Positions 16,771 through 57,414 of a stretch of DNA of 64,000 nt are shown one piece after another. This DNA is from an uncultured Clostridia bacterium (GTDB taxonomy: Bacteria; Bacillota; Clostridia; Christensenellales; UBA1242): contig CAKNPS010000002.1 of NCBI GenBank assembly GCA_930990515.1, positions 189,327 through 253,326 of the forward strand, in the 5' to 3' direction. The stretch's first letter is position 1. Each line of letters starts with the position of its first letter. The notes beneath the pieces are model-generated. The model ran no database searches and was not told the origin of the DNA. It saw nothing but the letters and a program-made list of their open reading frames with translations. The position numbers and the translations under genes were made by a program.

Positions 16771-17046
16771 AACAAAAATTAAAATAAATTCAAAAAATAT
16801 CGAAAAAATCATAAATTTTAATCATTTTTAAGTGCTTTGTTATCGTTTTTTCGGTATTTTTTATTTTTTTGTATTATTTTTTGATTATGATTTCGATTTT
16901 TTAATTAAAAAAATATTTTTAATAATTTTGAAAAAAATAATTTAATTTATATTTTTATCATTTTTGTTTGATAAATTTGTCAATAAAGTGTTATTATATA
17001 AATAAATATATGGGCGTTTGAAAATTGGGATAGTGAGGTGTTTTAT

Positions 17047-37853: not shown

Positions 37854-40800
37854 ATGAAAATAAGAAGCCTAATATTTTCATTATTAATGATTTTTGTCGG
37901 CATCGCTGGTGCTTACTCTTTCGTTTTGCCAATTCAAAATGTTAGTGCAGTAAGCGAAGATGCTAGCCTTTGGGACGGGGAATATCCGACACAAGTTTCA
38001 AATTATGATTTTGAAATGGTGGTTGAATTGGGGTCTAATCCAGAATCAGCACCTGATTATAATTACGTTGTTGGCGATATAGATGGTAATGGAGAATACA
38101 ATAATCTTTATTACATATATTCGGCTCGTGGATTTGCATATTTTGCTAATCAAGTAAGTTTGGGCAATACTTATGCTGGTGAAACTGTTTATCTTTGCAC
38201 TGATATTGATTTAAATGGAGCAAATGAAGAAGATAAAAAATTTTGGAAACCTATTGGAATTTCAAGCAATGGCAATGCTAATTATTTTGCTGGAACTTTT
38301 GACGGGCAAGGATATAGCATTTACAGTATGACCATTTCTGGCACTTATGGTGGAACAAACAATTATGGACAATGGGTAGGGCTTTTTTCAAATATTAATT
38401 CAGCAACAATTAAAAATGTGAATTTGGTTGATGTTGATGTTTCATATACAGGACAAGGAGCAAATGTTGGTGGTCTTGTGGGACTTTCAAGAAATTCCAG
38501 CATTTTAAACTGTTCTGTTTCTGGTTCGGTAACTGGAAATGGCGATGGGAATGGCAACATTCAAGGTGTTGGTGGTCTTGTGGGAACTTTTTATGGTGAC
38601 ACATCGACAACTTATAATGATGGTGATTATTCTTCAAAACACCGAATTGCAAACTCTAGAAACATGGCAACAGTTTCTGGAGAAGCAAATGTTGGTGGTA
38701 TTGTTGGAAATACTCACGACAGTGTTGTGATTTTGGAATGTTTTAATGAAGGAGAAATTAAAGCAAGTAGCACTGGTTCTTCAAATAATCTTGGCGGTAT
38801 TGTTGGATATACCATAGCAAATTCAACTAACTCGTCTTTGCTTGTAAGTTATTCTTATAATGCTGGAAATATTGTTATTGACAATGCTACAAATTCTGGT
38901 GGTATTTTAGGATATGGGGCTTCACAAAGCAATGGTTATAATTCCTACTTTAATATAGAAAATTCGTTTAACCGTGGAAATTTCACTTATTCTTCCGAAA
39001 GTGCTGTTTTAAGTTCTAGCAGAATTGGTGGTATTGTTGGTTTTTCAAATCGTCCAAATGGTGGAACAACTGGAAATGGGGCACAAACATTTAGTCGAAT
39101 TTTTAATGTCGGAAAAGTTGTAAATAATAGTGGAGAATACACAATTCCACAAAGTTCTACTTTCAGTGAGATTATCAATGTTCAACAAGGAGCAGTTATT
39201 GTTGGTTGTGAATTTGTTTACTATGATTCGGACTATCTTTATTCATACACAAATCCAGATAGAATTAGTTCTTGGAGTTTAACAAGTTCGAATGTGACAC
39301 AGATTTCAAATAATCCTGCACTTGTCGAAGTAAGTTTAATGAATGACAAATTTAGAACCGCGAACTTTGGTGGAGAAGTCTTTTTAGGAGATGGTATTTC
39401 AAATGTCAGAGACAGTGATATTTGGGCTATGAGCTCAGGCATTAATGGTGGATATCCATATCTTAAAAATACATATAATTTGAATAATGCAAACAACAAT
39501 TCTTCAAGCACGGTTGACAATCTTTGGAAAGGAAACGGAACTAAGTTAAGTCCATATCTTATCTACACTGCAGGCGATCTTGCTCGTGTTTCAGAAATTT
39601 ATAATAATGGATATGTAAATGATAAAGGCGAGTTTGTTTATGGCGAAAACGAAAACGGACAAAACATTTTAGGCGGAGATGTAATTAATGAAAAAACAAT
39701 AACTTACTTTTCGCTTCAAAACGACATTGACTTATCTTCAAGAGCATGGGCTCCTATAGGGAACGGTAGAACAGAGAATAGTAACACCTATAAATTTATC
39801 AATGCAGTTTTTGATGGCAACGATTTTACAATTTCTGGGATAAATTGTTCACTTCAAGCAAATTATTCTCATCTCGGGCTTTTTGGTTATGCTGAAAATT
39901 CAATCATTCGCAATGTGAAAATTTCTGATTTTAGATTTATTGGAACATCTAGTTCTGAAACAACTATTTATAAATCTACCCTTGTTGCTTATTTGGATGA
40001 ATCTTATGTTATTAATTGTGCTGATTTAACTGGTGGTGTTGAAGACACCCCAACAATTGGTGGTAGTACAACTTCTTCATATCTAGTTTATGGTTTAAAT
40101 AACTATATTGAAGGTGATAATGTTTTTGCTGATAATAATCTTTATGGTATAAATGATATTAAAAATATCACAACTTTATACCTTACTTACATCAATACTA
40201 ATGGCGGTGTTATTTATGACACAATCATAAGAGATGAAATTAATGAAAGCGGCGAGAATATTGGAGAAGTTATTGTTCATAGCGGGCAAGCAGAATTACT
40301 TATAAATACAGATGGAATAATTCATAAGGCTATAAATACATCATTTGGAAATACTTATTTAACCAAATTGCCAGAAGACTCTATTGATAGTAATGGAAAT
40401 TTGATTGAAAATTCTGTAATTATTAAAGAAGGTAATATAATTCAATATTTTAAAACTGATGATAAAAATAATAATCCTGGAGCAGATTCAATTTCTTTAC
40501 CTGATGGTGATGGTACTAGTGCGATTCCAAACTTGGTAAAATCAGGGCTTACTGCATCTTGGGGTTCAGCAGATGTTGTGACAATTACTATAAATTATAA
40601 TATTTATGAAACGAAAAATAATTATGAAAATATCACTCAAAATGAGATTACATTTAAGTCTAAGTACAATGAATATTGGACAAATCGTCGTTTCAGTGAA
40701 AATATTTTACAAGAATTAAAAAATCAAAGTATTTCTCGCCAAGGTTATCAAATTGTTGGAATTTATACAGGTTTTGACACTGATTTTACTGGCTATAATT

Positions 40801-43800
40801 ATCTTGTTAATGAAAATTCGTTAGAAAGTGGTGTTGGTTTATTCTTAAATTATGCACAAACATTTTATGTGGATTGGGAAGGAAATTCTAATTATTCAAT
40901 TTCTTTAAATTTAATCGATTCAGGAGACAATTCATCTCTGGCTTCCACTCCGCTCAACTATGTTTGGAGAGATGCTGTTGAAAGTGTTATTGTAACATTT
41001 ACAGCGACAGGAGACTCAATCACTTTAAGAGATGATATTTTAAGTGACGGAAGCACTGCCTTTAATTATTCGACAGCAAATGTTGATTTAAGTGATGAAA
41101 CCGTTGAAATTCAAATTCTTTTAAAAGAGGGTTTTGAATTTGACATTAATGATGAGTTTTTACAAAATTCTGGGTTTGTTAATGCTGGGACAACTGGTGA
41201 TTATGTAGAGAAGTTTGGTTCTGCAAGTTTAGATCATTCTAATGTTAATTCAAATGATTATGTTTATCTGCCAAAGGAAGTTTTGACCATATACCTTTCT
41301 AATATTGTGGGAAATGGAAGTCTTAGTGTTAATGTCAGAAGGTCAAATCATACTTATAATTTAACAGTTGATAATGAAATTTACTTTGCAATGACGGCAC
41401 CACAAGTGGTTAACACTGCAACCAGCATTTCGGTGCTTACAGGAGAAAATTCTTGGGAGCCACTTTCAAACTTTAGTCCAGAAACATTCCAACTTATTGA
41501 TGATAAATCTGATTTCTATTTTGGTGTAAATTTGTTTGATAATTATTTCCTTTCTTCTACTGATAGTTATGATAGAAGTGAAATTCCTAGTAGATTGTTT
41601 AAAATAGAGTATAATAATATTGTTGGAGAAGGCATTTTAATCAACATTCGTGATATAAGTTCGGCATCGCATTACTTTTTGTATGTTCTTACGACAGAAA
41701 CAGTTTCAACACCTAATCCAGATGATGACGGCATAAGAAATGTTCAAACGCTTTATTCGATCTCTAGAGATAGTGCTAGTAATCTATCTTATTCAAATTT
41801 CATAATTGAAGATATGCTAGCATCTATTACTGAAGGCTATGAAGATGCTGGAAATAATGGGGCAACAGAAAACGTTTCTAGCAAATTTTACAACTTTACA
41901 TATTACACAAATTCTAATTTTGGTATAGTTTTCTCGACAGAAACTGATGATGCAGAAATTGTTGATTATCAAAGCCGTCCAGAAATCTTAATGTTTAATG
42001 ACGCAAATGGAAATGGTGAACATGATGAAGGGTCACCAGATGACGGGACTATTGCTGAAGAAGTAAGAAAAATTTTCTATAATTTTGTATGGCCAACAGA
42101 TACTGATAACAATGGAACTACAATTGAGTCTTATTATGGATTTGATATCTCAAATCTTGAAACTGTTGACGAATTCACAATTACTCAAAGTAAGACAACT
42201 GTAAGTTTTGATTTTAAATTTGCAACATTAGAAGGGGACACTTTAACTGATGTTACAAGTACTCTTGAAAATCTTCCACAAATCGACATTTCAGTTGGGA
42301 ATACTGCAAGTGGAGATTTAGGAAACTATTTCAATAGTCATGGTGTTTCTTTGAATGTGAACAACTATGATTATTTGACTTTGACGATAAAAAATACCGA
42401 TAGTATAATGTGGCAATATAGAGATTTTGCTCGTATTTCTAATGTTGGAAAAATCACTTCTTCAACTATAGATGGCAATGAAATATTGACGATTGGAAGT
42501 TATTTAGATACATATTTATTCATTACGCCTAAAGGCAGTGATGGCAAATATACACTTGATGGAAATATTGAAAATCCAGATTCGGGCGGTCAGTCAATTT
42601 CTTATGACCCAGCAAGTTATTTTAGTTATAGCCTTATTCCAACTGAAACTGATTCGGACTATCTATATGAATATACCTTGAGCATTGCTTTCCCTTCAGA
42701 CATTACTCCAACAGATTTTGATATAACTTTTGTTGTAAGAGAAGTGAATTTCAATATTTCAGTTTCTTCAATATACAAACAAACAAGCCAAGATACTGGT
42801 TACACTGACACTACTAATGAAACAGTAATTTCTATTGACGGAGAAGATAACTTTGATTCTAGTCTTACTTTAAAGGCTTCAGACACTTTTGAAATTTCCA
42901 CTAATACTGAAAATCCGGGTTATACATTCAATGGCTTTGTTGTTACAAAGGGAAGCGGTAGTAGTTATACTGAAACATATTTCCCACCAATTTCTCATGA
43001 TGAATACGGACAAACAAGACTGTCAATGTCTATGCAAGAATTTTTGTCTTATTATAAAGATAACTTTACCACTTTGGCAAGTTCCGAAGATTATGATTAT
43101 ACATATACAATTCGTGCAGTTTATGTAAGTAAATATCTTTCCTATATGGCATCAATCAATAGATTTGTAATTTCTAATTATAATGGACATGCAGGAAGAT
43201 TTGGTTTGGCATCAGGAAACATCGGCAATGTAGATACGAACAATCTTACAACTGGAGTTTTCTATTATTATTCTGAGAACAGTAATTCAAGTTTGACAAA
43301 TGGGTATTTTAATTTTTCATTAAAGTCAAATTCAAGTTTGTTATATGAGTTAACTGGATTTGCTATTTTGACATCTGATGAACATGATTTAACGAGTGAA
43401 AACTTTGTCACTGAAAATGGAGCAATATATTTAGATGAAAGCTCTTCCACATTTGAAACTGATGGTAGCGCAATCAAAATTTATGGAAGTGCTGTGGAAA
43501 ATTATTTAAAAGAAAAAATGTCTGACATTAATTTCATCAATGATTATGCTAATTCAACTGTATACATAGTTCCAGTTGTTAGACAAAAAACTTTACAAAT
43601 CACGATTAATGATGGCGTGACTTCTAGTGATATTGATAATGCAGTTTATAATACGGAAGGCACAGAAACAACAGGAACAGAAATTGTTATGACCTATTAT
43701 TACCTTTTAAATTCTTCACTTCCAATTTCAAATGCCATTTATTTTGGAGAAGAAAATGATAATAGGGGAAACTATATTGCTTCTGTAAATGGCGGGTCTT

Positions 43801-46800
43801 ATATATCATTAATTTTGAACGATCTTTTTGCATATCGCGTGGGCTATACGTCTCGAAGTTGGGCGGCTTTCTACGGAGATAGATACATTCAAACATATTC
43901 TTCAAACATATCACTTGATACTTTCTTTAATTCTAGTTATGTCTCAGATGATGGCTTATCAGATTACAAAATCACAGTTTCAAGAAGCTGGACTCCTAAC
44001 ACTTATACAATTACTTATTATAGTGGAGATTCTAGATATAACTCTGATATTTATGGAACTAGTACAACCGCTAATTACTCTCAAACCGCAACATATAACG
44101 TAGCCACCACACTTCTAACAAACAGATTTTTAATTACTGGGTATGATTTTGCTGGTTGGGAAGTTTATAAAGTCACTGCAGACGGAAATATATATCTAGG
44201 CAATTACGATGAAAATCAAGATATAACAAACATCATTACTGGGGCAGACCAAATTGCAAATGAAGAAAATTTTGGAACAAGTTTAAATGTTTATGCAACT
44301 TGGACAGCCAAAACTTATAACATTACACTTAACGGAAATGGCGGAAGATTTTCAAATGGAAACGAAACTTTAACATTGCAACTTAGCTATAATCAAATGT
44401 TTAATAGTGCTACTGTTTCAGAGAATCAAAACATTACTATAAGCAATATTGAAAACTTGTTTAGAGTGGGAACAAATGAATATATTTTAAGAGATTCTTT
44501 CGCTTTTAACGGATTTTATGTTTCAAACGACCCTTCTTTAACTATAAGCGTGACAAATAATATTACCACAAGCACATATCTTAGAAACAATATTTTAACT
44601 TTCGTTGATAGCTTAGATGAGGCCTTGGTCGTTTATGCGACTTGGAGATTTACAGATGTTCCATCTATATCATTCCTAAATCAAGTGGAATACACATATA
44701 ATGGCGCACCAATTGAAGTTGGAATTGATGAATTTAATATTGTAGCTGACAATTTAGATGTTATTAACGGCGATGCTTTCAGTATTGCATATTCAAATGC
44801 TAATTCTGGAATTGATGTTGATTTTACATTTGCAGGCGAACCATCTCAAAACATTGAAATTGAAGAAGTTTCATTAGCAACTGGACAAGGCACAACATAT
44901 TTATTTACTGTCGGAGAAAATGTTGGAACTTACACAATTACATTGACAATTAGTTTAATTGACAATGCTTCCACCTATTATAATTTAGGGACTTTCACTA
45001 ACTTGTCAACAACATTCTCTATTGTCATTAATCGAGCAGATGTTACATTCTCAATTTCGGAGAATAATGCTATATGGCTTAAAAACCTTCAATATATGGT
45101 TTCGCTTGTTGGTAGTTCAACTGAAATTGCACAATTTAATAATTACACCACTTTTGAAGATTTAAGATTAGATTATGTAAGTAAAGAAAATTATGAATTT
45201 ACTGCTAATCTTGTTTATGAATATCTCTTTATGAAATACTATAACATCATTAACACAAAAACAAGTGAAATTCATACTTTTAAAAACTGGACATATAAAG
45301 ATAATGATGATAACACCACAAATGATTATTTTTCATACTACGGTGGAATTTCCTATTTTGGTGAAGATGAAAACAACACAAATTGGGATGGTATTTCTCA
45401 GGAAAGACAAGAAAGAGCACAAATTTTAAGCAATAGTTTGTTTGTCTTTGGTTATACATTTGGAAACGATGTATCACAAGTTGTTTTAACAGGAGAAGAT
45501 AATTCAAGATATAATGTTGGCGACATTACTTTGAGTTTTGCTGATTCAGACAATCTTATTACTGAACTTCAAATCACATCAATCACTGTTTATTCCACAA
45601 GAACTATGATTCCAGGAAATAGTTACTCTGTTCGTGCATACCTTACTGACACTGAACTTAATGCGGGAAATCTCAATAATTATAACTTAAACACTGACGC
45701 AAATGGACAATATTACATTGAACTTGACAATGCGTATATGTTTGTTCAAGTTTTGAGACTGCAAAATAATTCTCTTGCAAGGTCAACTTATTACAACGGA
45801 GAAATTGCCGATGTTTCTTGGACAAGTGCTGAACAAGAAGCAAATGGTCGAATCTATTTTGATGGTAGCATTTTATATCCTTATGAAATTGATAGTGAAC
45901 TATACAATGGACTTTATCTTAATTTAACCATACAAACATCAAATGCGGGGAATGCAGATCAAGACACAGAATTTAATTTCTATGATAAGGAAAATTATCT
46001 CAATATCTCAAACTTAATAATCTGCACATTTGGAGATTCTTCTTCAAGCAGTGATTTCACAAATTACTATTCATATTTCAATGTTATTTTAGACGAAAGT
46101 TTTGTCTTCACAATTTATAATGTTGTAGATACTGCAAGAATTGAACTCTCTCCAACATATTTCACTCGTTATAATGGAATTATCACAAATACTGATTTAC
46201 CAGAAGATGTTTTATTAAGTTTGGAAAATGGACTTTTCAGTGTGACAAGTTTCACATACTCTCTTGACAACACAACCACACAAACTTATGCAGAGAATGA
46301 TAGTTTTGGAAATGCAATGCCACTAAGTGATGGACAATATTTCTCAGAAGATGGCAGTATTTTGTTATTCACTCTTGAAGACAATAATTCAAATGCTCCA
46401 ATTTTCTATACATCAGCGGCTGTAGTTTCTGTTGGAATTATGATTAATAGATCACTTTTAAATCAAACAATCAAATATTATGGAACTTTTGATAGTTTAC
46501 TCACAGATTTAGAAAATCCTTATTCTGCAACAACAGAATATAACATAATTCTCAAAACTAAAACAGATGAAGGTATTTTCCAAAGTGATATTGAATATGC
46601 TGACGGAGCGATTACAGACTTAAATTATTATGGCGTATTCTCAGATATGGTAAGAATTGACTATGATTTGAATCTTCCAAATGTAGAGAATATTATGCAT
46701 AATCTTTTGAAACTTAATGAAGATACAGTCGATAATATCATCAATATCACATATTCAAATCTTAGCGTGACCGACTTAAAATATACAATTAATGGTGTTG

Positions 46801-49800
46801 AACAGTCTTATGTCAATTTGTTTGAAATTCAAGAAGAAGAGCCAACTGTATTTATTGGGGCAGATATAAATGATCCACACACATTTGTAACTTTAAAAGC
46901 TTATTGGGAAATCAGTGAATTGAGTTTACTTCAAAATCAAACAGAATTTAATTATGCAGTAGGTTCAATGTCCAGTTTCTATGCTAACCTTGTAGGCAGT
47001 ATGGAAAATGAAGAAAGCGACTTCTTTGATTATACTTATGAATTTTATTTGGGAGAGAATTTACTTGCTTCAAGCAATAATTTTGCCACATTGGTTTTGA
47101 ATTTTAACAATGGTGGTTCAATTTCCGATAATGGCACTTATACTTTGAAATTCACGGTTTCTATAAAAGATAGATATGCATATATCTTAGATGGAACAAG
47201 TGCAAGTTCGGTTTCAGGCTCATTAGATTTTGATATTAACTTCTTTAAAAACCGCTTAACAAATCTAGAATTTGTGACTGAAAGTAATGAAATTACTTAT
47301 GATGGTTTTGACCATATAAACACCTTTAGTATAAGATTGACTTATCAAGTTTTTGACTCAGATTTAAATGATTATGCTGAAGATTTGATAACTGCAGAAT
47401 ATCAATATGGAACATCAAATTATCTTACAATCATAGTAGAAAAGGGTGGAGAAATTGTAACTTCAATTGACAATGTTGGAACTTACATAATTCAAGTAAC
47501 ACTAAATGAGAATTATTTTGATTTTGATGCTGATTTAATTGATACAATTTTTGAATTTATTGTTAATCGAATGAATATTGACCTATCTACTTACAACTTA
47601 AATAGAAGCAAAAACTTTAATGCTGACGACCCAGCACTTACAAACACTTTCCGAATTGCAAATCAAAATGTTCAATTCAATTTAGAAAGAAATATGGTAG
47701 ATGGTGTTTATCCAGAAGATATAGGAGAATATTCACTATACCTTACAAGTTTCACTTCGCAAGATAACAACAACTTTACTCTTTCTTATGGCGAAGTTTC
47801 CTTATTTGACGGAACAAATTATAATGAACAAAATTGCGAAACAACTCCAGTAGGAACTTTGAGTATTGTCAAAACAGGCGATTTAAGAATTTCTTGGCAA
47901 GTTTCTGATAATCTATCAAACACAATTCCAGTGGATTATGATGTTAATGGTTATAGCGTTTCAATAACAACAGATGGAAATCTCATTGTTTACAAAGGTG
48001 GAGAACAAGAAGAAGTTGTAAGTTTAGTTTTCTATGATTTAGTTCAAGGGCAAAACATAACAAAAGAGATAGTTTTAAACATTCTTCTTCCACTTTTAGA
48101 TGAAATTGATGTTTATCTTACAACATCTGGTCAAAACTATGACACTGCATATAATTCTGGTAATTATACTTTCACATTAGATATTCCAGAAAATGCGGAA
48201 ATTTTGAATTACTATAACAACATATATTTCTCATCAGAATATACTCTTCAAATACTTAGTCAAACTCTCAATTTAGACAACTTTAATTTTGAAAAAGAGT
48301 TTGATGGCGATGATGAAATTTATCTTGATATAAATAATAATATCATTGAAGACATTTCTCAATTTGATGGTATTTACATTCAAGGAACTTTCACAGACAT
48401 TCACGCAGGCAATAACATTCTTTTAAGTGTTATGCTTATGTCCACCGATGAAGAAACATATAGCCTAGTAAATTATCAACTTTCTGCTAGTTCTGCTTAT
48501 GGAAACATTTTGAAGCGTGATGCAGAAATAACTTTCACATTTAATTTCCTAGAAGGAAAGAGTAACTTTAATTATGGCGATTTAACCTTAGATAATTTAT
48601 CAAGTTTCATAAGTTATGAAGTTTTTGATGGTGAAGAAGATGTTACTGATCTTTTCCAAAGTTCATATTTCAATTTGAATTATACATTGACACAACAAAG
48701 TGGTTCAGTTCAAACAAATTCTCGTGGCTATGTTTATGTTGGCGAATACACACTTGACACAATAAGCGATTATCAAGATTTTAATATGACAGAAAATCTT
48801 CCTTCAATTATAGTCTTGCCTTATGAATATCAACTTGAACTTGATGAAGGGTTCATAAGTGTTACTGCATTAGACGCAGTTTCTAGTGCTTACAATGAAA
48901 CTGTTTTTGTGGAAGACACAGGAGACACTTTTGTCGTAGGTTTCTATGTTCCAAATGAAATTGTTGGAACAACTGGACAAGTTGGAAACTATGAACTTAC
49001 ATTGAATAGTGATAATAATCTCTACACAAGTTTATATTCAAGTGGAAATATTAGATTGACAATTAATCAAAATAATAATGCTTTTAGTGTTGTTTCATTT
49101 GAAGGGGCTTTATATCTTCAAATTGACGATGAAAGCATTTTGACCCGTCCATACAATGGGCAGACCTATACAATAACAGCAGACGAAACTTCTTTCATAA
49201 TCACAATTGAAAATGGGAATAGCCAGTATTCAGTTTCAAGCACTTTCAGTTTCTTCACTTATCAAGATGGTTCACTTGTCCAAATTGATAATGCCGATTT
49301 AACTTTTGATGAAATTAGCATTACATCATCAAATACCAATGAATTTTCTGCGGTTGGAAGTTATAGGCTCAACCTTTCAGCAACTGCTGTAGGATATACA
49401 AATGTTTCTTTCTTAAGTAGTTACACATTTATTATTGCACCAAGAGAAATAACATTAAGTGATGGAATGTTTGATAAAGTTTATGATGGTTCAAACATTG
49501 TTGAAGTTGAAGCCACAGAAGATATGGGCTTAATTGCTGGTGACAGTGTTACTATTCGTGGTATTTATCAAGATGTGAATGCTGGCGACAATAAATCTGT
49601 AAGAGTTACTCTTGCAGGAAGTTCATCTAGAAATTATACATTAACAACAACCACAACTGTTGGCACAATATCTAAAAAAGATGCCACAATCTCTTTGGTT
49701 CAAGACGAATTTGAATATGGCGATGTTACTAAGAACACAAGTTTAAGTTTTGAAGTTTTTGATGGCGAAAGCATTATTTCAAGCGGAGCATATCAAATTA

Positions 49801-52800
49801 TAAGTCAAACAATCAATTATCAAGGCGAAGGCTATTTACCTTATAGTGTAGATAGTTATTCGGTTAGCATTGTTGTAGAAAGCACAAATTACAATATCAC
49901 ACCGTTATCACTCAATTTCCACATTACAAAACGACAAATAAGTTTCACATTCACTTCGCCTGGGGTTTATATGGCTTCCTTTGGTTCGGACGAAACTTTG
50001 AGTGAATATTTTGTAAGGTCATATACCACTGTCTATGGCGACACAATTGAAATTCAATTTAGAAGAGATGAAGGAACTGCAACAGGCTATTACTTTGTTC
50101 GCGAAGCATCTTTAAATAGTAGCGATGAAGCATCAAATAACTATAGCATTAGCGAAACCGTTACCGATAATGTGGGGGCATACCGTATTGTAAGTTCAGG
50201 AAACAGGATTTATCTTCTTGCAAGTGAAGAAGATGTTATCACTGATGAAAATGAAGGCATTGTCCTTGAATTTGAATATGATGGAAACTCTTATAATCAA
50301 GTTTCTTTAGTGCTTAATGCCGAAGAAGAAAATTATTCGTTGGTTGTTTCAAATTCCGACAATCCTGAAATTTCACAAGACTTTGTTCTTAATATGTATT
50401 CTTATAATGAAGCAAACGGAACTTACACTCGTTTAACTTCAGTTTTTGATTCTACAATCTCGGCAAATACGATTTCTATAAGCGATTTGATTTTGAATGC
50501 TGGCAATTACTATATTTATAATAGCGATGTGACAAGCAGTAATTTTGCTGTAAAACTTGGTAAAAACAATATGCTATTCGCTTTCCAAATAACAGTCACT
50601 AGACGTCCAGTATATTTCAGAGATGCTGTTTTAGAACGACAATTTGACAATCAAAATGCCACATTATATTACGAAAATGCAAACAGCATTTTGACAAATA
50701 TTTTAAGCGGAGATAATTTGTCATTAAATGTTGAATTCTATGATTCTGACGGCGCACCTGCAAGGTATGCTGGCGAAGGTTATACTCTTCGCGGAGAACT
50801 TTCTGGCAGTGACAATTATCAACTTGTCTTTACTTTAAATGATGGCACTCCTGTGACAGGAACAATTACAAAAGCACCGATAAGCATTGCAATCAATGAC
50901 CAAAGTGTTGTTTATGGCGACCAGAACACTCAAATGGGCGGAGTTATCATCACATATCAATTCCAAAGCGAAACAATTGATTTAACTCAATATGAAAAAC
51001 TTGATGAAATGATGTTAAACATTGTTTTGTGGGACCCAGTTTTAAACAGCGAAGCAACATATTCTTCGACAGGCTATTTGAATGCTCAAGTTTATAATAT
51101 GCGTAGCGATGGGCTTGTTTCTGATGACTTCTATATTGACACAAATGGCTTTATTTGCAATGGCACTGCAGGTTCAAACTTAATCACAACTTACACAGTT
51201 TCTCCAAGAACATTGAATATTGTTCAAAGGGACGAAGAACTTCAAACAATTTTCACGAAATATTATGATGGTGGAACAACTGCCAACATCTTTACAGATG
51301 GAGTTTTGAGATTTGATTTTGACGGAGAAATCGTGGGAGATGTTGTCAGTGTTGAAAGTGGAAATTATGCTACAAGTGCTGTTGGACAACAAATTGCCGT
51401 TTCCTTCACTTTAATTGGTGCTGATAGCGGAAATTACGTATTGACACCATACACTTCTGGTGTGATTAATCCAATCACAGTTTCCATAAATTATGATAAG
51501 GGTGGAGACAGCGAAGAAGAAAACAACAATATTATATCTTCTGTTCCAGAAGGAACACCACTTTTAGAAAATATGAATTATCCGTTTGTTTATTCTGATA
51601 GTCTAACATCAAATTCTCAAACAGATTCTCCATTGACTTCTGCAAGTTTCCCTTCATCATTAACCGGAAAAGAAGGGCATACATTTAGTCATTGGTCATT
51701 AGATTTTGAAGTTACTGAAAATTCAACAGAATATGATTATCTTGTTCGTCTTGCTTCTGAACTCAATTTAACAACATCATATCAAGAAGGAATATTCTCA
51801 TTTGTTGTAGGGAACAATAGAGCAACAGTTTCTCTTTTAAATCGTCTTTTAAGTGATGAAAGCAACAATTATTTTGGCCTTTACTTTTTAGGACAAGAAA
51901 CAATTGAAATCACTTTCCATGCAGTTTGGACAACTCAAACTTATAATGTGACAGTTTCATTAGAAAAAGATGGCATGCCAACAACTCAATTTGCTGAAAC
52001 TTATGTCAACGATTATCTTCTTCCAACAGCAAGTTATCAAGCAACTTATGCTTATAATTCTCAATTCACGATTCGTGCCGTATTAGATGACCATATCAAA
52101 GTGGCAAGATTTTACGATATGGCAACTGGAAGTGATTATGTTGATGGGGAAGACGGAGTTGAAATTTCCACGACACTAAACAGCGAAACAAACAAATATG
52201 AAACAACATTCTATGTTGCATCTCTTTCAAGAGCTATGAATATCGTGGTTGAATTTGCTTATAAAGATGTTTCAATCACACTTGACCTTACAAGTTTTGG
52301 TATTGGAGAAGTTACATTTGACGATGATAGATTTACTGAATATTCGACAAATAGATATGTTTGGAATACAAGTTATGATGAATTAAATAACTTAAGTCTT
52401 TCAAATCTTCCAGAACTTACACGTGTTGGATTTATTGTTACTGGTTACTCATTCTCAATGGGCACAGGCTCAACTGAGATAAGTGCTGATGTATTTGATA
52501 GTAGGTTTATTAGTGACTTTGTTTACCCTAGTGGCGATGATTATGAAATTGTATATTCTCCAGTCTTCTTAGGACACGATGTTAATGTTGTTTTGAATTA
52601 CAATGAAGATGGAAATTATCAAAATGATGACACAGACCAAAAAGTCAACATTCAAGTGCCTTATCAAGGAACATTTGGTTCAAGTAGTGAATGGATAGAA
52701 ACTCCAACAAGAACAGGCTATGATTTTGTTGGTTGGTTCTTAAGTGAATCAAGTGAAGAGGCGATAACAGGGGAAAGTGTTGTTGACAACGATGCAGGAA

Positions 52801-55800
52801 TTGTCCTTTACGCAAGGTGGCAAATTCAACAAAACACAGTATATTTGACTTTTGATGATATGACACTTAATAGTGCGAAGATAAATGATATTGATGTTGA
52901 CTTCACAATAGATAACGGAACTTATATCTTTGAAAACTTGACCTTTAATGACACTTTAATTTTAGAATTTACATTACAAGCAGGGTTTAATATTAATTCC
53001 GTAAGTTACCACTATCTTGATGGAGAAGATATTGAAGTGTTATCATTCCGCACAGAAGATAATATTGGCATTGTGGAATTTACAATTCCTGCAAGACCAG
53101 AAGTTTATCTTGAAGTTAATAGTGGTCTTAATGAAAATGAAATCAGAATTACTGGGGACAACATTTTAAGTGTCACAGCAACCGATACACAAGGAAATCC
53201 TTTTGAAATTATAGACAACAGTTTTGTTGTTGACACGAATGTTGATATAATCATTCAAGTAACATTCACTCCTGGTTATGTTTATGTTTCCTCATCACTT
53301 ACTTCAAATTATAATGAAACCTACGATGAAGAAAACAACATTTTAACGATTGAACTATATAACATCACTTCTTCAATGGAAATTGCACTTGTCACAAGAG
53401 TTCGTCAAAATCAAATTTCTGTTGAGTTTGCAACACCATCTCATTTAGAGCAGTTTGTTGTTAACAATATGATTATCAGTTCTGAACTTGTGTTTGAAGT
53501 AGATACTGGAGAGCCTTTTGCTTTCTATACTCAAATTACACACGGCTATAAAACATCAGTTGAAGAAATAGTTTCAAGTGTTCAAGACACTGAAATTCAA
53601 GTTTCTGTTGTGAATGATGCATCTAGTTTATATAATGGTTACTTCTATGTTGTTATTAATAACATTTATAGCGATATTGATTTAATAATCAACACATCAA
53701 AACAATCTTATACAGTTCAAGTTGTAACTATTAATTATGACGAGAATATGCAGTTAGTTGAAAATGCAAGAAACACCGCTTTTGTTAATGGGGAAAGTGA
53801 AGTTACAATGGAATTTGAAAGTGAAGTTGAACTTAGTGCAAATGCTTATGATGATTATGGATTTGCTGGCTTTAGTCTTGACGGACTTTCAGTCTTCACT
53901 TCAGATAATCCTGCAACTTATGTGGTTGAAGATAATGTAATAATTTATGCAATCTTCTCGAAACTTCGTTATAATTTGACATTCCTATCCTATAATTATT
54001 ATCAATTAGATAGTGGTTCAGGAAGCGGTGGAGAAGAAAAATACGAACTTATCTATCAACAAATTTTCTATGCTAATGAAGACCGAACTCAAACAATTAA
54101 CGAAACAACATTGTTCTATGGTGCTTCAATAACACTTTATTTAACAATTCCAAGTGGCTATAATTTCTATGGTTTTGGTTATTATGAAGTAAATAATCCA
54201 AATAGGACTTATATTGTTAGAGATGAAGTGACGGAAGACCGCTTGGTTGACATTTACATTTCTGCTGACGAATTCTTAGATGTAGAAAACACCAATATTA
54301 TTGTCTTTGTGGCATTAAGTCCAATTGAAGTGGAAATTAATGTTTCATCTTGGCTTGATTATGATGGTAGTTATGAAGAAGATGATAGAGCAGGAAATAT
54401 TTCACTAGTAGATGAAAATGCTGGAGAAGTTAATAGCAATGGTTATGTGACAGGAACTAACAATCATTATTCTTCATCATCATTTAATGGTGGAAATCCT
54501 GATGTTAGAGATTTCACAGTTATATCTTATACTAATAGCACAATTTATCTAAAAATCTACGCAGAGCGTGATGGTTATTACTTCACAAGAGTGTCGGCAA
54601 CTCCTAACATCACAATAAACGCTTTAGGAAGGTTCGATGAAGGTGGGGTTGGATATTATCTATATCAATTTGCTGGCTTTATTGGTGGAACTCCTTTAGA
54701 CATACAAGTTTACTTTAAAGCAGAGAAGAAAATTATTGACTATAATTTTGTTAATGAAAATGGCGATATTGTAGTAGGTGGAAACTTGCGTTTGGAAGTT
54801 GATGCTGAAAACAGCAATAAAGTCTGGTCAGATGGAACAAACTTCTCTTCTATGACAGTGACAGGTTTTATTGATACAAATTACACAGTGGTGGCTTATG
54901 TTCGTCTTGGCTTTATGATTGATGAAAATGCTTCTTTTATAACTTATGACGACAGTGTTGTGACAGTATCAAATATAAGTTTTGACCAAGTTTTATCTGA
55001 AGTTTCAAATTACACTTATATTTTAAGATTTAATGTCAGTGGTTATAAGGATAACACAACCATAAACATCAATTTAGTGCCACAGACTTACACTGTTTTA
55101 CTTAAAGATACTTCAATAGAAACTGACGCTGAGACAAGTGACATTTTACTGGAAATTAGAAATGTTAAATTCCATGAACTATTAAATCTAAGCGTAGACA
55201 ATAGTGAAAACTTAATTTTTGACGAAGAATTGTTTGATTATAGAAATGGTGTCCTTAGTGTCGTTCAAACAAAAGATGATTACTCATTTGGTGGTTATTT
55301 CACTCGTGAAAACGGGCAAGGAAGACAATACATCAACGCATCTGGCGAAGCCATTTATGACTTTATGGAAACAGGCTACATTTTAGATGAGACTAACAAT
55401 ATTTATGTGCTTGCAGAAAATGCTGAAATTGTTGATGGACAAGTTGTTATCACTCTTTACTTATATTGGGTATATCTAAAAACACAAATCACTTTTGAAC
55501 TTATTCCTGAAACTAACTTGAACATTGATGCTCTTGATATAGTTAATGGTGTGAATGAATACAACTCTTGGTTTAATGAAGATATACCGCTTTATCTTGA
55601 AGTTGCATTCGACACAAATCTTACATTTACTGCACCAGAACTTTCGGGCTATAGTTTCTATCGATTTGTGATAAGACAATGCGATGCTAATGGTAACTGG
55701 CTTTCAGATGTTGTAAGTTATCAATCTTCTGTTCCTTGGTCAACAAATGAATTTGACCAAATAGTTCAAGTTGAAGTTCAAATTTATTATTTCGCAAAAG

Positions 55801-57188
55801 TTGATGTTCTTCTTTATGGTGGTGAAATGGAATATGAAATTCGACAGACAACTGATGACAATGCCGCAAGAACACTTTTAAGTCAAGGTTATGTTGATAC
55901 AACAAAAGAATTTACCTTAGCAGCACTTGACTCAGACGGATATACCTTCCAGTATTGGATTAATGCAACCAATAATATGCGTTACGATACAAAAGAAGTG
56001 ACATTGACAATCACATCAAGGACAACTTTCTTCTTGTATTGTCAAGGAAAGAGTATTGTCTTAAGATTTGATGAATATGACGCAACAAATGGGCAAATTG
56101 TAATACTTGAAATTAATTCTCGTCTTAGTGGAATTTCTAATCGAGCACTTGGAATTTATAATGATGATGGCTTTGTTAAAACAACCACAAGTGTTAATGT
56201 CAGAGTTGGCGATACTGTCACTTTCTTAACCAGCATTGATTTTGGTTATGGTGCAGAATGGAATATTGACGGTGTTGAACTTACAAGAATGACAAGTGAA
56301 TATTATTACTTCACCGTAACGCTTGATGAAACTTTTGCAAATCAATCTATTCAAGTTATTCCAACCTTCTCTGGAGAAAGTGTAGCATTCTATATTCAAC
56401 AAGATTTCAGTGAAGAAGATTATCTTGAAAATGCAACAGATAACAACAATGCAGCAAATGCAGGTTACTTTGTATATCAAAATGAAACTACAAGTGTTGT
56501 TATTGATAGTATTTTTGTCAACATAAATATTAATGTCGTTTTAAATATGAGATATGCCGTAAAAGAAATTAGAGTTATGTCTTATAGTGGCGAAAGTATT
56601 GATGTGACAGAATGCTATAATAGTCAAACGGGGCTTCTTTCCTTCACTCCAGCCTTTATGGCAGAGAACAACATTGCAGGGACTTTGATTTTGGAAGTTA
56701 TTTATGATAGATTGTATTTCACATACATTGGCGAGTTTGAAGAACACGGCAATGGTCAAGAAGATAATCCATATTTAATTTCCACTGTGGAAGATTTAAC
56801 TTACTATATGCAAAAGATTAATAACGGGGAAGTTAATGCTGACGGACTTAAATATTCTGAAGCAAGTTATCGACTTACCACAAGTCTTAACTTAGCAGAA
56901 AAATTCTGGACACCAATCGGAACGGAAGAAAATCCTTTCAATGGAACATTCAGTTTCAATGGTTATACAATAACTTCAGTTTATCTTGCAAGACTTTATA
57001 ACAGCACAAGTTATGGTGGTTTGTTCGGTGTGCTTGGCGAAAATGCTAGATTTATTCAATCTGAACAAAACTTCTGGTATATCTATGTGATTGTGGGAGT
57101 TGTAGCATTCTTAATTATTCTTTTGGTTATTCTTCTTCTATGGAACAGAAATAGAAAGAAGAGAAGAGAAGAAATGGAAAGAAGGTAG
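37854..57188 (+). CDS. Giant surface protein (6444 aa): signal peptide, GLUG modules, Listeria-Bacteroides (Flg_new-type) repeats, MBG/YDG-type repeats, C-terminal TM anchor
   Basis: The ORF runs uninterrupted for 19335 nt. The signal peptide is MKIRSLIFSLLMIFVGIAGAYSF...VSA. GLUG repeats lie at about 38340-39130 (VGGLVGLS, VGGLVGTF, VGGIVGNT, LGGIVGYT, SGGILGYG, IGGIVGFS). A second GLUG-type module begins near 39500 (GNGTKLSPYLIYTAGDLARV). GY.F.GW...LYA.W repeats are present (e.g. TGYDFVGWFLSE...VLYARWQ). K.YDG-type repeats are present (e.g. FDKVYDGSNIVEV...GIYQDVNAGDNKSV...NYTL). A C-terminal GLUG-like cap lies at about 56740-57060. The TM is FWYIYVIVGVVAFLIILLVILLLW followed by NRNRKKRREEMERR. 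There is no LPXTG. Confidence 0.95.
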   Translation: MKIRSLIFSLLMIFVGIAGAYSFVLPIQNVSAVSEDASLWDGEYPTQVSNYDFEMVVELGSNPESAPDYNYVVGDIDGNGEYNNLYYIYSARGFAYFANQVSLGNTYAGETVYLCTDIDLNGANEEDKKFWKPIGISSNGNANYFAGTFDGQGYSIYSMTISGTYGGTNNYGQWVGLFSNINSATIKNVNLVDVDVSYTGQGANVGGLVGLSRNSSILNCSVSGSVTGNGDGNGNIQGVGGLVGTFYGDTSTTYNDGDYSSKHRIANSRNMATVSGEANVGGIVGNTHDSVVILECFNEGEIKASSTGSSNNLGGIVGYTIANSTNSSLLVSYSYNAGNIVIDNATNSGGILGYGASQSNGYNSYFNIENSFNRGNFTYSSESAVLSSSRIGGIVGFSNRPNGGTTGNGAQTFSRIFNVGKVVNNSGEYTIPQSSTFSEIINVQQGAVIVGCEFVYYDSDYLYSYTNPDRISSWSLTSSNVTQISNNPALVEVSLMNDKFRTANFGGEVFLGDGISNVRDSDIWAMSSGINGGYPYLKNTYNLNNANNNSSSTVDNLWKGNGTKLSPYLIYTAGDLARVSEIYNNGYVNDKGEFVYGENENGQNILGGDVINEKTITYFSLQNDIDLSSRAWAPIGNGRTENSNTYKFINAVFDGNDFTISGINCSLQANYSHLGLFGYAENSIIRNVKISDFRFIGTSSSETTIYKSTLVAYLDESYVINCADLTGGVEDTPTIGGSTTSSYLVYGLNNYIEGDNVFADNNLYGINDIKNITTLYLTYINTNGGVIYDTIIRDEINESGENIGEVIVHSGQAELLINTDGIIHKAINTSFGNTYLTKLPEDSIDSNGNLIENSVIIKEGNIIQYFKTDDKNNNPGADSISLPDGDGTSAIPNLVKSGLTASWGSADVVTITINYNIYETKNNYENITQNEITFKSKYNEYWTNRRFSENILQELKNQSISRQGYQIVGIYTGFDTDFTGYNYLVNENSLESGVGLFLNYAQTFYVDWEGNSNYSISLNLIDSGDNSSLASTPLNYVWRDAVESVIVTFTATGDSITLRDDILSDGSTAFNYSTANVDLSDETVEIQILLKEGFEFDINDEFLQNSGFVNAGTTGDYVEKFGSASLDHSNVNSNDYVYLPKEVLTIYLSNIVGNGSLSVNVRRSNHTYNLTVDNEIYFAMTAPQVVNTATSISVLTGENSWEPLSNFSPETFQLIDDKSDFYFGVNLFDNYFLSSTDSYDRSEIPSRLFKIEYNNIVGEGILINIRDISSASHYFLYVLTTETVSTPNPDDDGIRNVQTLYSISRDSASNLSYSNFIIEDMLASITEGYEDAGNNGATENVSSKFYNFTYYTNSNFGIVFSTETDDAEIVDYQSRPEILMFNDANGNGEHDEGSPDDGTIAEEVRKIFYNFVWPTDTDNNGTTIESYYGFDISNLETVDEFTITQSKTTVSFDFKFATLEGDTLTDVTSTLENLPQIDISVGNTASGDLGNYFNSHGVSLNVNNYDYLTLTIKNTDSIMWQYRDFARISNVGKITSSTIDGNEILTIGSYLDTYLFITPKGSDGKYTLDGNIENPDSGGQSISYDPASYFSYSLIPTETDSDYLYEYTLSIAFPSDITPTDFDITFVVREVNFNISVSSIYKQTSQDTGYTDTTNETVISIDGEDNFDSSLTLKASDTFEISTNTENPGYTFNGFVVTKGSGSSYTETYFPPISHDEYGQTRLSMSMQEFLSYYKDNFTTLASSEDYDYTYTIRAVYVSKYLSYMASINRFVISNYNGHAGRFGLASGNIGNVDTNNLTTGVFYYYSENSNSSLTNGYFNFSLKSNSSLLYELTGFAILTSDEHDLTSENFVTENGAIYLDESSSTFETDGSAIKIYGSAVENYLKEKMSDINFINDYANSTVYIVPVVRQKTLQITINDGVTSSDIDNAVYNTEGTETTGTEIVMTYYYLLNSSLPISNAIYFGEENDNRGNYIASVNGGSYISLILNDLFAYRVGYTSRSWAAFYGDRYIQTYSSNISLDTFFNSSYVSDDGLSDYKITVSRSWTPNTYTITYYSGDSRYNSDIYGTSTTANYSQTATYNVATTLLTNRFLITGYDFAGWEVYKVTADGNIYLGNYDENQDITNIITGADQIANEENFGTSLNVYATWTAKTYNITLNGNGGRFSNGNETLTLQLSYNQMFNSATVSENQNITISNIENLFRVGTNEYILRDSFAFNGFYVSNDPSLTISVTNNITTSTYLRNNILTFVDSLDEALVVYATWRFTDVPSISFLNQVEYTYNGAPIEVGIDEFNIVADNLDVINGDAFSIAYSNANSGIDVDFTFAGEPSQNIEIEEVSLATGQGTTYLFTVGENVGTYTITLTISLIDNASTYYNLGTFTNLSTTFSIVINRADVTFSISENNAIWLKNLQYMVSLVGSSTEIAQFNNYTTFEDLRLDYVSKENYEFTANLVYEYLFMKYYNIINTKTSEIHTFKNWTYKDNDDNTTNDYFSYYGGISYFGEDENNTNWDGISQERQERAQILSNSLFVFGYTFGNDVSQVVLTGEDNSRYNVGDITLSFADSDNLITELQITSITVYSTRTMIPGNSYSVRAYLTDTELNAGNLNNYNLNTDANGQYYIELDNAYMFVQVLRLQNNSLARSTYYNGEIADVSWTSAEQEANGRIYFDGSILYPYEIDSELYNGLYLNLTIQTSNAGNADQDTEFNFYDKENYLNISNLIICTFGDSSSSSDFTNYYSYFNVILDESFVFTIYNVVDTARIELSPTYFTRYNGIITNTDLPEDVLLSLENGLFSVTSFTYSLDNTTTQTYAENDSFGNAMPLSDGQYFSEDGSILLFTLEDNNSNAPIFYTSAAVVSVGIMINRSLLNQTIKYYGTFDSLLTDLENPYSATTEYNIILKTKTDEGIFQSDIEYADGAITDLNYYGVFSDMVRIDYDLNLPNVENIMHNLLKLNEDTVDNIINITYSNLSVTDLKYTINGVEQSYVNLFEIQEEEPTVFIGADINDPHTFVTLKAYWEISELSLLQNQTEFNYAVGSMSSFYANLVGSMENEESDFFDYTYEFYLGENLLASSNNFATLVLNFNNGGSISDNGTYTLKFTVSIKDRYAYILDGTSASSVSGSLDFDINFFKNRLTNLEFVTESNEITYDGFDHINTFSIRLTYQVFDSDLNDYAEDLITAEYQYGTSNYLTIIVEKGGEIVTSIDNVGTYIIQVTLNENYFDFDADLIDTIFEFIVNRMNIDLSTYNLNRSKNFNADDPALTNTFRIANQNVQFNLERNMVDGVYPEDIGEYSLYLTSFTSQDNNNFTLSYGEVSLFDGTNYNEQNCETTPVGTLSIVKTGDLRISWQVSDNLSNTIPVDYDVNGYSVSITTDGNLIVYKGGEQEEVVSLVFYDLVQGQNITKEIVLNILLPLLDEIDVYLTTSGQNYDTAYNSGNYTFTLDIPENAEILNYYNNIYFSSEYTLQILSQTLNLDNFNFEKEFDGDDEIYLDINNNIIEDISQFDGIYIQGTFTDIHAGNNILLSVMLMSTDEETYSLVNYQLSASSAYGNILKRDAEITFTFNFLEGKSNFNYGDLTLDNLSSFISYEVFDGEEDVTDLFQSSYFNLNYTLTQQSGSVQTNSRGYVYVGEYTLDTISDYQDFNMTENLPSIIVLPYEYQLELDEGFISVTALDAVSSAYNETVFVEDTGDTFVVGFYVPNEIVGTTGQVGNYELTLNSDNNLYTSLYSSGNIRLTINQNNNAFSVVSFEGALYLQIDDESILTRPYNGQTYTITADETSFIITIENGNSQYSVSSTFSFFTYQDGSLVQIDNADLTFDEISITSSNTNEFSAVGSYRLNLSATAVGYTNVSFLSSYTFIIAPREITLSDGMFDKVYDGSNIVEVEATEDMGLIAGDSVTIRGIYQDVNAGDNKSVRVTLAGSSSRNYTLTTTTTVGTISKKDATISLVQDEFEYGDVTKNTSLSFEVFDGESIISSGAYQIISQTINYQGEGYLPYSVDSYSVSIVVESTNYNITPLSLNFHITKRQISFTFTSPGVYMASFGSDETLSEYFVRSYTTVYGDTIEIQFRRDEGTATGYYFVREASLNSSDEASNNYSISETVTDNVGAYRIVSSGNRIYLLASEEDVITDENEGIVLEFEYDGNSYNQVSLVLNAEEENYSLVVSNSDNPEISQDFVLNMYSYNEANGTYTRLTSVFDSTISANTISISDLILNAGNYYIYNSDVTSSNFAVKLGKNNMLFAFQITVTRRPVYFRDAVLERQFDNQNATLYYENANSILTNILSGDNLSLNVEFYDSDGAPARYAGEGYTLRGELSGSDNYQLVFTLNDGTPVTGTITKAPISIAINDQSVVYGDQNTQMGGVIITYQFQSETIDLTQYEKLDEMMLNIVLWDPVLNSEATYSSTGYLNAQVYNMRSDGLVSDDFYIDTNGFICNGTAGSNLITTYTVSPRTLNIVQRDEELQTIFTKYYDGGTTANIFTDGVLRFDFDGEIVGDVVSVESGNYATSAVGQQIAVSFTLIGADSGNYVLTPYTSGVINPITVSINYDKGGDSEEENNNIISSVPEGTPLLENMNYPFVYSDSLTSNSQTDSPLTSASFPSSLTGKEGHTFSHWSLDFEVTENSTEYDYLVRLASELNLTTSYQEGIFSFVVGNNRATVSLLNRLLSDESNNYFGLYFLGQETIEITFHAVWTTQTYNVTVSLEKDGMPTTQFAETYVNDYLLPTASYQATYAYNSQFTIRAVLDDHIKVARFYDMATGSDYVDGEDGVEISTTLNSETNKYETTFYVASLSRAMNIVVEFAYKDVSITLDLTSFGIGEVTFDDDRFTEYSTNRYVWNTSYDELNNLSLSNLPELTRVGFIVTGYSFSMGTGSTEISADVFDSRFISDFVYPSGDDYEIVYSPVFLGHDVNVVLNYNEDGNYQNDDTDQKVNIQVPYQGTFGSSSEWIETPTRTGYDFVGWFLSESSEEAITGESVVDNDAGIVLYARWQIQQNTVYLTFDDMTLNSAKINDIDVDFTIDNGTYIFENLTFNDTLILEFTLQAGFNINSVSYHYLDGEDIEVLSFRTEDNIGIVEFTIPARPEVYLEVNSGLNENEIRITGDNILSVTATDTQGNPFEIIDNSFVVDTNVDIIIQVTFTPGYVYVSSSLTSNYNETYDEENNILTIELYNITSSMEIALVTRVRQNQISVEFATPSHLEQFVVNNMIISSELVFEVDTGEPFAFYTQITHGYKTSVEEIVSSVQDTEIQVSVVNDASSLYNGYFYVVINNIYSDIDLIINTSKQSYTVQVVTINYDENMQLVENARNTAFVNGESEVTMEFESEVELSANAYDDYGFAGFSLDGLSVFTSDNPATYVVEDNVIIYAIFSKLRYNLTFLSYNYYQLDSGSGSGGEEKYELIYQQIFYANEDRTQTINETTLFYGASITLYLTIPSGYNFYGFGYYEVNNPNRTYIVRDEVTEDRLVDIYISADEFLDVENTNIIVFVALSPIEVEINVSSWLDYDGSYEEDDRAGNISLVDENAGEVNSNGYVTGTNNHYSSSSFNGGNPDVRDFTVISYTNSTIYLKIYAERDGYYFTRVSATPNITINALGRFDEGGVGYYLYQFAGFIGGTPLDIQVYFKAEKKIIDYNFVNENGDIVVGGNLRLEVDAENSNKVWSDGTNFSSMTVTGFIDTNYTVVAYVRLGFMIDENASFITYDDSVVTVSNISFDQVLSEVSNYTYILRFNVSGYKDNTTININLVPQTYTVLLKDTSIETDAETSDILLEIRNVKFHELLNLSVDNSENLIFDEELFDYRNGVLSVVQTKDDYSFGGYFTRENGQGRQYINASGEAIYDFMETGYILDETNNIYVLAENAEIVDGQVVITLYLYWVYLKTQITFELIPETNLNIDALDIVNGVNEYNSWFNEDIPLYLEVAFDTNLTFTAPELSGYSFYRFVIRQCDANGNWLSDVVSYQSSVPWSTNEFDQIVQVEVQIYYFAKVDVLLYGGEMEYEIRQTTDDNAARTLLSQGYVDTTKEFTLAALDSDGYTFQYWINATNNMRYDTKEVTLTITSRTTFFLYCQGKSIVLRFDEYDATNGQIVILEINSRLSGISNRALGIYNDDGFVKTTTSVNVRVGDTVTFLTSIDFGYGAEWNIDGVELTRMTSEYYYFTVTLDETFANQSIQVIPTFSGESVAFYIQQDFSEEDYLENATDNNNAANAGYFVYQNETTSVVIDSIFVNININVVLNMRYAVKEIRVMSYSGESIDVTECYNSQTGLLSFTPAFMAENNIAGTLILEVIYDRLYFTYIGEFEEHGNGQEDNPYLISTVEDLTYYMQKINNGEVNADGLKYSEASYRLTTSLNLAEKFWTPIGTEENPFNGTFSFNGYTITSVYLARLYNSTSYGGLFGVLGENARFIQSEQNFWYIYVIVGVVAFLIILLVILLLWNRNRKKRREEMERR

Positions 57189-57190
57189 GG

Positions 57191-57264
57191 CGAGAAAGTA
57201 AAATTTTTAACAAGTTAAAAATTTTGAAAACGAAGTTTTCGTGCGTGAAACGCACACTTTCTCG
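57191..57264. repeat. Nested-palindrome four-helix (cloverleaf) element, copy B
   Basis: Outer stem 57191-57199 / 57256-57264. Inner hairpins are 57200-57211/57214-57225, 57226-57231/57235-57240 and 57241-57245/57251-57255. No nucleotides separate the helices. It begins 3 nt after the giant-gene TAG (57186-57188). Confidence 0.6.
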
Positions 57265-57414
57265 ACCGTTCTCCATTTAAGTTTTTTCAGAATTAAATAC
57301 AGTAAATTTAAAATTTTTCATTATTATACCTACAATAAAACAACACAAAAACAAACAACATTTGTGGAAATAATTTTATAAAATTATAAATATAATAAAA
57401 CAAGGGAGAATTAT

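Follow-up and report, generated by a model that had tools for sequence, protein, structure and literature searches.

Four-helix palindromic elements at gene ends in uncultured gut Clostridia

The window, the whole stretch of 64,000 nucleotides (64 kb) that was analysed, is an ordinary chromosomal neighbourhood of an uncultured Clostridia bacterium, with genes for an ABC exporter pair, pflB/pflA, yabP/yabQ, uppP, a P-type ATPase and holB. The GC content of the host is about 32%. Contigs near-identical to the window originate from gut metagenome assemblies, the genomes closest to it are MAGs of uncultured Clostridia and Christensenellales, and the ABC transporter of one relative carries the name Candidatus Caccovivens faecavium. 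The window also harbours two giant open reading frames, at 17038-27849 (3603 aa) and at 37854-57188 (6444 aa, + strand). Immediately 5' of uppP, the related contigs L006-L023 retain the tail with which the 6444-aa protein ends (YGGLFGV..., a single membrane helix and a K/R-rich end ...EEL/MERR*); the version of L022 has an additional K/E-rich extension. A weak Flg_new match is the sole domain match on record. The TAG stop codon of the 6444-aa ORF (57186-57188) is followed by GG and then by the palindromic element under study, copy B, which begins at the third nucleotide past the stop. Outside the element, at 57391-57408 on the + strand, uppP has a -10-like TATAAT and a ribosome-binding site. 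This promoter/RBS block, AAATATAATAAAACAAGGAGG (57386-57410), is found in L006-L023 with or without B and is near-invariant in about 18 species, while the rest of the spacers is unalignable. In the near-identical strain L003, one loop base of B is different, and about 45 nt on the 3' side of B (window 57297-57340) are replaced or strongly diverged.

Copy B folds exactly as the earlier note had described, into four helices with zero junction nucleotides and a length of 74 bases. Its outer stem P1 (9 bp) pairs the 5' arm CGAGAAAGT (57191-57199) with the 3' arm ACTTTCTCG (57256-57264), as read from the sequence and the fold; the inner GRAAGT is kept across the family and the outer part is variable. 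Within P1 lie three abutting hairpins. P2, AAAATTTTTAAC-AA-GTTAAAAATTTT (57200-57225), is AT-rich and is the module with conserved sequence; here 57200-57211 pair with 57214-57225 (12 bp, loop AA). P3, GAAAAC-GAA-GTTTTC (57226-57240), pairs 57226-57231 with 57235-57240 (6 bp, loop GAA). The GC-rich P4, GTGCG-TGAAA-CGCAC (57241-57255), pairs 57241-57245 with 57251-57255 (5 bp, loop TGAAA; alternatively 6 bp, loop GAA), and its sequence is variable with the pairing kept. RNAfold returns the four-helix fold on both strands, except that in P2 it opens the C-G pair next to the 2-nt loop. On the + strand the fold has -30.2 kcal/mol (z -5.1), equalled by 0 of 200 shuffles; under DNA parameters z is -7.1. 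The full match to R1, the covariance model of the family introduced below, spans 57189-57266 with the polarity P1-P2-P3-P4-P1' on the + strand, where it scores 59.4 bits against 24.6 on the - strand. The family thus has a clear polarity (59 bits on one strand, 25 on the other). An additional stem outside P1, 'P0', in which the giant gene's last bases would pair with sequence past B that is followed by TTTTTT, was rejected: the flanks pair no better than shuffles for B in the window, L003 and L006, and the signal is only marginal for B in L009.

Copy A (9807-9893, + strand) lies 38 nt past the stop codon of an ABC-transporter ORF (7979-9769, + strand). The description of both copies as directly downstream of stop codons therefore suits B, 2 nt past its TAG, and not A. 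P1 of copy A pairs 9807-9819 with 9881-9893 (13 bp) and encloses P2 (9821-9844, 11 bp), P3 (9846-9861, 6 bp) and P4 (9863-9879, 6 bp), all on the + strand, with four single junction bases (G9820, T9845, T9862 and T9880). RNAfold gives -48.8 kcal/mol (z -8.1) for A, and R1 scores it at 55.9-58.3 bits. Under DNA parameters, z values for A and B on both strands range from -7 to -10. When the 64 kb were folded in sliding 110-nt segments, A ranked first and B third in stability. A scan for three-branch structures, defined as a perfect outer stem around at least two hairpins, covered 670 kb of the genome and relatives and returned the family elements plus one unrelated structure in L030; shuffled sequence yielded no such element. 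A looser scan permitting G-U pairs also placed the real copies above shuffle noise.

The unrelated structure (L030 16286-16394, -61.5 kcal/mol) is composed of a tRNA 3'-end-like sequence, GGGTTCAAGTCCCACCACCAGCACCA, a canonical terminator, a partial copy of the tRNA-like end in inverted orientation and two small hairpins. ARAGORN finds no tRNA in it and nothing reaches the Rfam gathering score, and a tRNA-Cys/Gly/Val cluster is situated 200-600 nt away. It could be an integration-site remnant.

Copy A was proposed to be a relative of B with an almost entirely different primary sequence, in which only the architecture is kept. It is a true relative, with the same four-helix fold, and the architecture is indeed kept; the sequence is less different than was thought. 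Both copies carry GAAAG at the inner end of P1 (GRAAG in the family) and both fit the 24-nt P2 pattern AAATTYWWAAC-NN-GTTWWRAATTT. The pattern AAATTYWWAAC-WW-GTTWWRAATTT is matched twice in the window, with 0.03 matches expected by chance. Conservation of P2 and the inner part of P1 extends across paralogues and orthologues, so the view that nothing beyond architecture persists does not hold.

The P2 pattern together with the inner part of P1 was used as the query of a metagenome scan. This returned the same-species copy of A in L062 (97.9% identical to the window) and three new loci, namely C (L058), D (L059 = L061 = L063) and E (L060). All of these, including the L062 copy, fold as a four-helix junction. 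The covariance model R1, built on a hand-made, N-padded structural alignment, then uncovered on its own a sixth locus, F (L063 690-774; 42.8 bits, E 2e-7). F had no part in the R1 seed, and the P2 search pattern fails to match it; in its P2 one pair has changed from T-A to C-G, P4 is similar to P4 of A, and P3 to P3 of D. Locus C was later recovered at the orthologous site in L072 and L074. Further copies, the search for which had been set beforehand as a refutation test, were thus found: the family comprises six separate loci (A-F), spread over two or more uncultured gut Clostridia. Copies are 73-87 nt long and the order of modules is fixed, with P1 around abutting P2 (AT-rich), P3 and P4 (GC-rich). 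P1 has 8-13 bp in every copy, with outer bases that differ between loci. Since the search pattern required P2, the metagenome hits owe part of their P2 conservation to the way they were searched for; independently of the pattern, this conservation is supported by the comparison of A with B, by the orthologues of B and by F.

Two copies occur in about 76 kb of the window genome and two in the 14.4-kb contig L063. No further copies were found in 10 kb to the left of the window, and about 0.8 Mb from relatives held no extra copies beyond orthologues; on the right side of the window the contigs run on for about 2 kb before they end. The copy number looks low, and it is known roughly, from scans of partial genomes (about 76 kb for the window genome). 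The contig L063, a human-gut contig with a GC content of about 28% which harbours D and F, also harbours a full-length OLE (ornate large extremophilic) RNA (13528-14100, + strand, 371.8 bits).

The earlier note did not recognise a described RNA family in the elements, and they match no family of Rfam. Rfam 15 gave 0 matches at the gathering score in the whole 64-kb window, and none at this score at the elements in L006, L009, L058, L060 and L063. A tRNA-like reading of the cloverleaf was rejected with ARAGORN, which calls neither a tRNA nor a tmRNA anywhere in the window. With A and B as BLAST queries, plasmid and phage collections gave short chance matches only, none of them significant. The P2 pattern had five matches in viral contigs, and none of these is regarded as a member. 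Those in L053 and L055 are non-palindromic chance matches. The IMG/VR contigs L054 (5966-6076), L056 (3834-3944) and L057 (4619-4729) carry a hairpin, AAATTCAAAACAAGTTTTGAATTT, with exactly the P2 sequence of the L062 copy of A, but its surroundings are GC-rich, fold differently and lack the four helices, and the R1 score of 29 bits derives mostly from P2. These AAATTCAAAACAAGTTTTGAATTT hairpins are probably unrelated to the family, though the identity over 24 nt is odd.

Orthologous spacers differ between relatives in whether they hold a copy. B is limited to the window species, L006 and L009. In L007, L008 and L010-L023 it is lacking, and the stop codon of the giant gene is followed by about 50 nt and then by the conserved uppP promoter block. 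In a tree of UppP plus ATPase the window, L006 and L009 form one clade, which indicates that B was gained once. A is lacking from the orthologous spacer in five relatives with ABC transporters that are 81-87% identical, and C is present in L072 and L074 and not in L073, where the flanking genes abut. Copies have thus been gained in particular lineages, then vertically inherited and kept. The absence from most orthologous spacers argues for insertion and against an ancestral regulatory RNA. The boundaries of eight copies show no consistent direct repeat that would represent a target-site duplication. In L067 (11785-12155) and L068 (11785-12131), a different insert of 345-370 nt is situated in the spacer between the ABC transporter and the next gene, with its first ~100 nt conserved between the two contigs; these long spacers at the site of A were rejected as copies, being unrelated in sequence and without a significant fold.

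The orthologues of B also show which parts of the unit are constrained. Fourfold-degenerate divergence between the window and L006/L009 amounts to 0.60/0.57, close to saturation (~0.69), and the spacer past B is barely more alike than shuffles. At this distance P2 with its loop differs at 0 of 26 and 1 of 24 positions from L006 and L009, respectively, and the P3 stems at 2 of 12 and 0 of 12. The P4 stems differ at 6 of 12 positions in both comparisons with the pairs kept in all, and the loops of P3 and P4 vary freely. These counts indicate that P2, P3 and inner P1 are constrained in sequence and P4 in structure only.

Pairing was counted in nine sequences at 39 pairs (314 cells). MAFFT alignments were structurally wrong beyond P2 and were replaced by a hand-made structural alignment. 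Standard pairs occupy 96.8% of the 314 cells compared to 75.6% in shuffles, a percentage flattered by the fitting of the alignment to the fold of each sequence, and pairing falls to about 50% when the partner column is slid by one. Changes on both sides were found at 26 of the 39 pairs (65 cells), and the proposal that base pairing is preserved despite sequence change is borne out by them. One-sided changes to G-U account for 0 of the 314 cells. The raw folds are likewise free of G-U pairs, apart from one optional pair of this kind at the base of A's P2. Because every pair is Watson-Crick, the opposite strand folds equally well. Furthermore, two loops occur as exact reverse complements in close copies: P2 of A has the loop TT where the L062 copy has AA, and P3 of B has GAA where C has TTC. 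When template switching takes place at DNA hairpins, loops that are inverted and arms that are homogenised are the traces expected of it (PMC8794818). From the loop inversions, the lack of G-U pairs and the occurrence of two orientations we infer that the unit behaves as a DNA palindrome that would form hairpins on both strands. A pure RNA reading fits poorly with the 0 G-U pairs in 314 cells.

All six loci lie in short intergenic spacers, 0-50 nt from a stop codon, and the genes upstream of them are functionally unrelated. A, B, D and E follow the stop of a same-strand gene and have P2 as their first hairpin. C and F, two of the six loci, are inverted between two same-strand genes, which does not support the fixed 3'-UTR polarity implied in the earlier note. 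D is located between convergent genes, with an A-run before and a T-run after P1. The distance from the uppP -10 to B differs between species. Most copies have no T-run, the T-tract being weak or absent in B, C, E and F. Canonical terminators are present in five other spacers of the window, and in the window scan no other terminator-like hairpins were found in the spacers of A and B. As had been noted, a T-run of the ordinary kind is missing at B, where nothing in the spacer was flagged as a terminator; A departs from this, since its P4 followed by TTTTCGTT, the start of the P1 3' arm, scores as terminator-like. E is followed by a separate canonical terminator, and the element need therefore not be the terminator itself.

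Of three options offered by the earlier note, a REP-like repeat fits best. The reading that we favour, with moderate confidence, is an undescribed low-copy family of REP/MITE-like interspersed palindromic repeats, in which template switching, mobilisation in trans and a role at the 3' end of mRNAs would all have a part. Template switching would re-copy the arms and flip the loops. Spread, whether now or once, may have been aided by a trans-acting protein that recognises the module of inner P1 and P2, as in REP and MITE systems. Copies behind genes, such as B after the giant gene and A at the end of the ABC operon, would be transcribed into the 3' end of the upstream mRNA. There the very stable fold might hold up 3'-exonucleases and serve as a weak terminator that is poor in T-runs, a predicted role that would explain why B has been kept in three species. 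The conservation of P2 in old orthologous copies is unexpected for inert junk, and it could equally point to a host function apart from mobility. This strong P2 conservation leaves room for a dedicated RNA element as well as for a protein-binding DNA site.

The first of these would be a cis-acting 3'-UTR RNA, in which P2 is bound by a protein, or RNase III cuts the stacked P1/P2, so that decay or termination of the upstream mRNA is controlled; its likeness to mobile repeats would be incidental. Four of the six loci agree with it, standing P2-first just past the stop on the strand of the gene, as do the abundance of pair-keeping changes, the conservation of P2 and P3 sequence at near-saturating divergence, the position of A and B at operon ends without another terminator and the terminator-like P4 plus TTTTCGTT of A. 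However, C and F are inverted between same-strand genes, and the complete lack of G-U in 314 cells is difficult to reconcile with an RNA in an AT-rich genome, which should often make such pairs. The orthologous spacers of most relatives moreover lack the element, the giant gene there running into the uppP promoter, and the upstream genes have no function in common. We consider this RNA reading rather unlikely. The second would be a DNA site, for which orientation relative to genes is irrelevant. In that case a sequence-specific dimeric protein that binds DNA, recombines it or recognises junctions would attach to the perfect 24-26-bp P2 palindrome, possibly with the double cloverleaf extruded as a whole, and the remainder of the element would promote cruciform extrusion. 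Pairs that are Watson-Crick only and strands that fold equally well point in this direction, together with loop inversions that imply DNA hairpins in vivo and a conserved P2 with an AT-rich centre and a 2-nt spacer. Yet no candidate protein is known, and a fixed relation to promoters is missing, given the varying distance to the uppP -10 and the place of D between convergent genes. With arms at least 56 nt apart, P1 cannot extrude like a simple cruciform, and P3 and P4 have no obvious role although their pairing is kept. We therefore judge a DNA site of this type improbable, as well as the cruciform-promoting part assigned to the rest of the element.

It might also be argued that there is no family at all, and that each locus acquired on its own, through template switching nearby, an unusually branched intrinsic terminator or a chance palindrome. 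Template switching can make perfect hairpins de novo (PMC8794818), and D with its flanking A-run and T-run looks like a bidirectional terminator. However, the sequence of inner P1 and P2 and the order of the modules recur at six loci in different genomes, shuffled sequence yields no such element, R1 found F without prior knowledge and most copies miss the T-run. The sequence common to the loci largely refutes this explanation, to which we attach hardly any probability. Besides the REP/MITE-like family favoured above, a more speculative possibility, about which we have considerable doubts, is that the unit is a domesticated four-way-junction module and not selfish DNA, in which P2 would dock a specific protein, as RNA or as extruded DNA, and P4 would be a free stability module. 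If true, uncultured gut Clostridia would possess structured 3'-end elements, or DNA junction sites, of a class that is new.

REP, BOX, ERIC and Correia are small interspersed palindromes of well-studied bacteria, in which they shape genome plasticity as well as termination and the stability of mRNAs. To our knowledge, none have been described for this large uncultured gut lineage, and we know of no small interspersed palindrome with a compact four-way-junction design, for which Rfam has no match either. Two constraints are separated within one unit of 75 nt, as one hairpin is held by sequence and the others by pairing. The combination of pure Watson-Crick covariation with loop inversions makes the family a clean natural case for distinguishing RNA selection from DNA template switching behind 'compensatory evolution'. 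The R1 covariance model is ready for annotating these genomes.

Comparison with known systems showed partial likeness to several of them. The best Rfam match of B is IMES-5 RNA (RF02995), which also has a multi-branch junction with three inner hairpins. An identity of B with IMES-5 was rejected, since B reaches 22.1 bits where the gathering score is 96.1; the two have no real match in sequence, IMES-5 is of marine source, and the likeness is a generic one between multi-branch structures. Integron attC sites are, like the family, structured variable palindromes right after stop codons with AAC/GTT triplets, and they are recognised as folded single strands. They are characterised by R''/R' boxes (RYYYAAC / GTTRRRY) at the base of the stem, extrahelical bases and a fixed orientation after cassettes. 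In the family, in contrast, AAC/GTT is located at the apex of P2 and not at the base of the whole stem, as compared by sequence reading, the pairing is perfect without extrahelical bases and both orientations occur. No cassette arrays or integrase were found near the copies in the sequence read. Intrinsic terminators resemble the family in their position after stop codons, in the GC-rich P4 followed by the pyrimidine/T-rich 3' arm of P1 and in a purine-rich 5' arm complementary to that tract, and flanking A- and T-runs make D similar to bidirectional terminators. The three tandem hairpins within an outer stem and the core sequence common between loci are unlike intrinsic terminators, and the canonical terminators of the window differ in look from the family elements.

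Bacterial MITEs (for example Correia/NEMIS, RUP, bcr1) are, like the family, non-coding, smaller than 200 bp and intergenic, with outer inverted repeats, patchy presence between relatives and stable predicted RNA folds. Two MITE traits were indeed found in the family: terminal inverted repeats are present as P1 in every copy, and presence/absence polymorphism at orthologous sites was seen for A, B and C. Unlike MITEs, the family elements have no target-site duplication and are much smaller than most MITEs; their termini are least conserved and an internal hairpin is most conserved, and plasmid and phage collections hold no matching insertion sequence. REP/BIME/SMAG elements, which go with RAYT transposases, share with the family that they are small intergenic palindromes near gene ends in either orientation, and REP elements resemble it also in retention at orthologous sites. 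They are often co-transcribed and have been reported to change how stable the upstream mRNA is (PMC3184786). A REP, however, is a single GC-rich imperfect hairpin of ~20-40 nt in tens to hundreds of copies, whereas the family has four helices in 73-87 nt, an AT-rich conserved hairpin and a seemingly low copy number. A GTAG resembling the REP-type head precedes P1 directly in B of the window and of L006 and in E, where it includes the TAG stop codon; the variants ATAG and TTAG occur in B of L009 and in C, respectively, and A, D and F have none. In the ~76 kb read (window and flanks) there is no RAYT (IS200/IS605-like) gene, and no transposase or other partner gene was seen. The lack of a target-site duplication and of a visible partner gene, the weak termini, the multiple hairpins and a GTAG found only with a TAG stop place the elements in neither REP nor MITE. 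The family is outside both groups and is of the REP/MITE kind as reviewed in PMC3184786.
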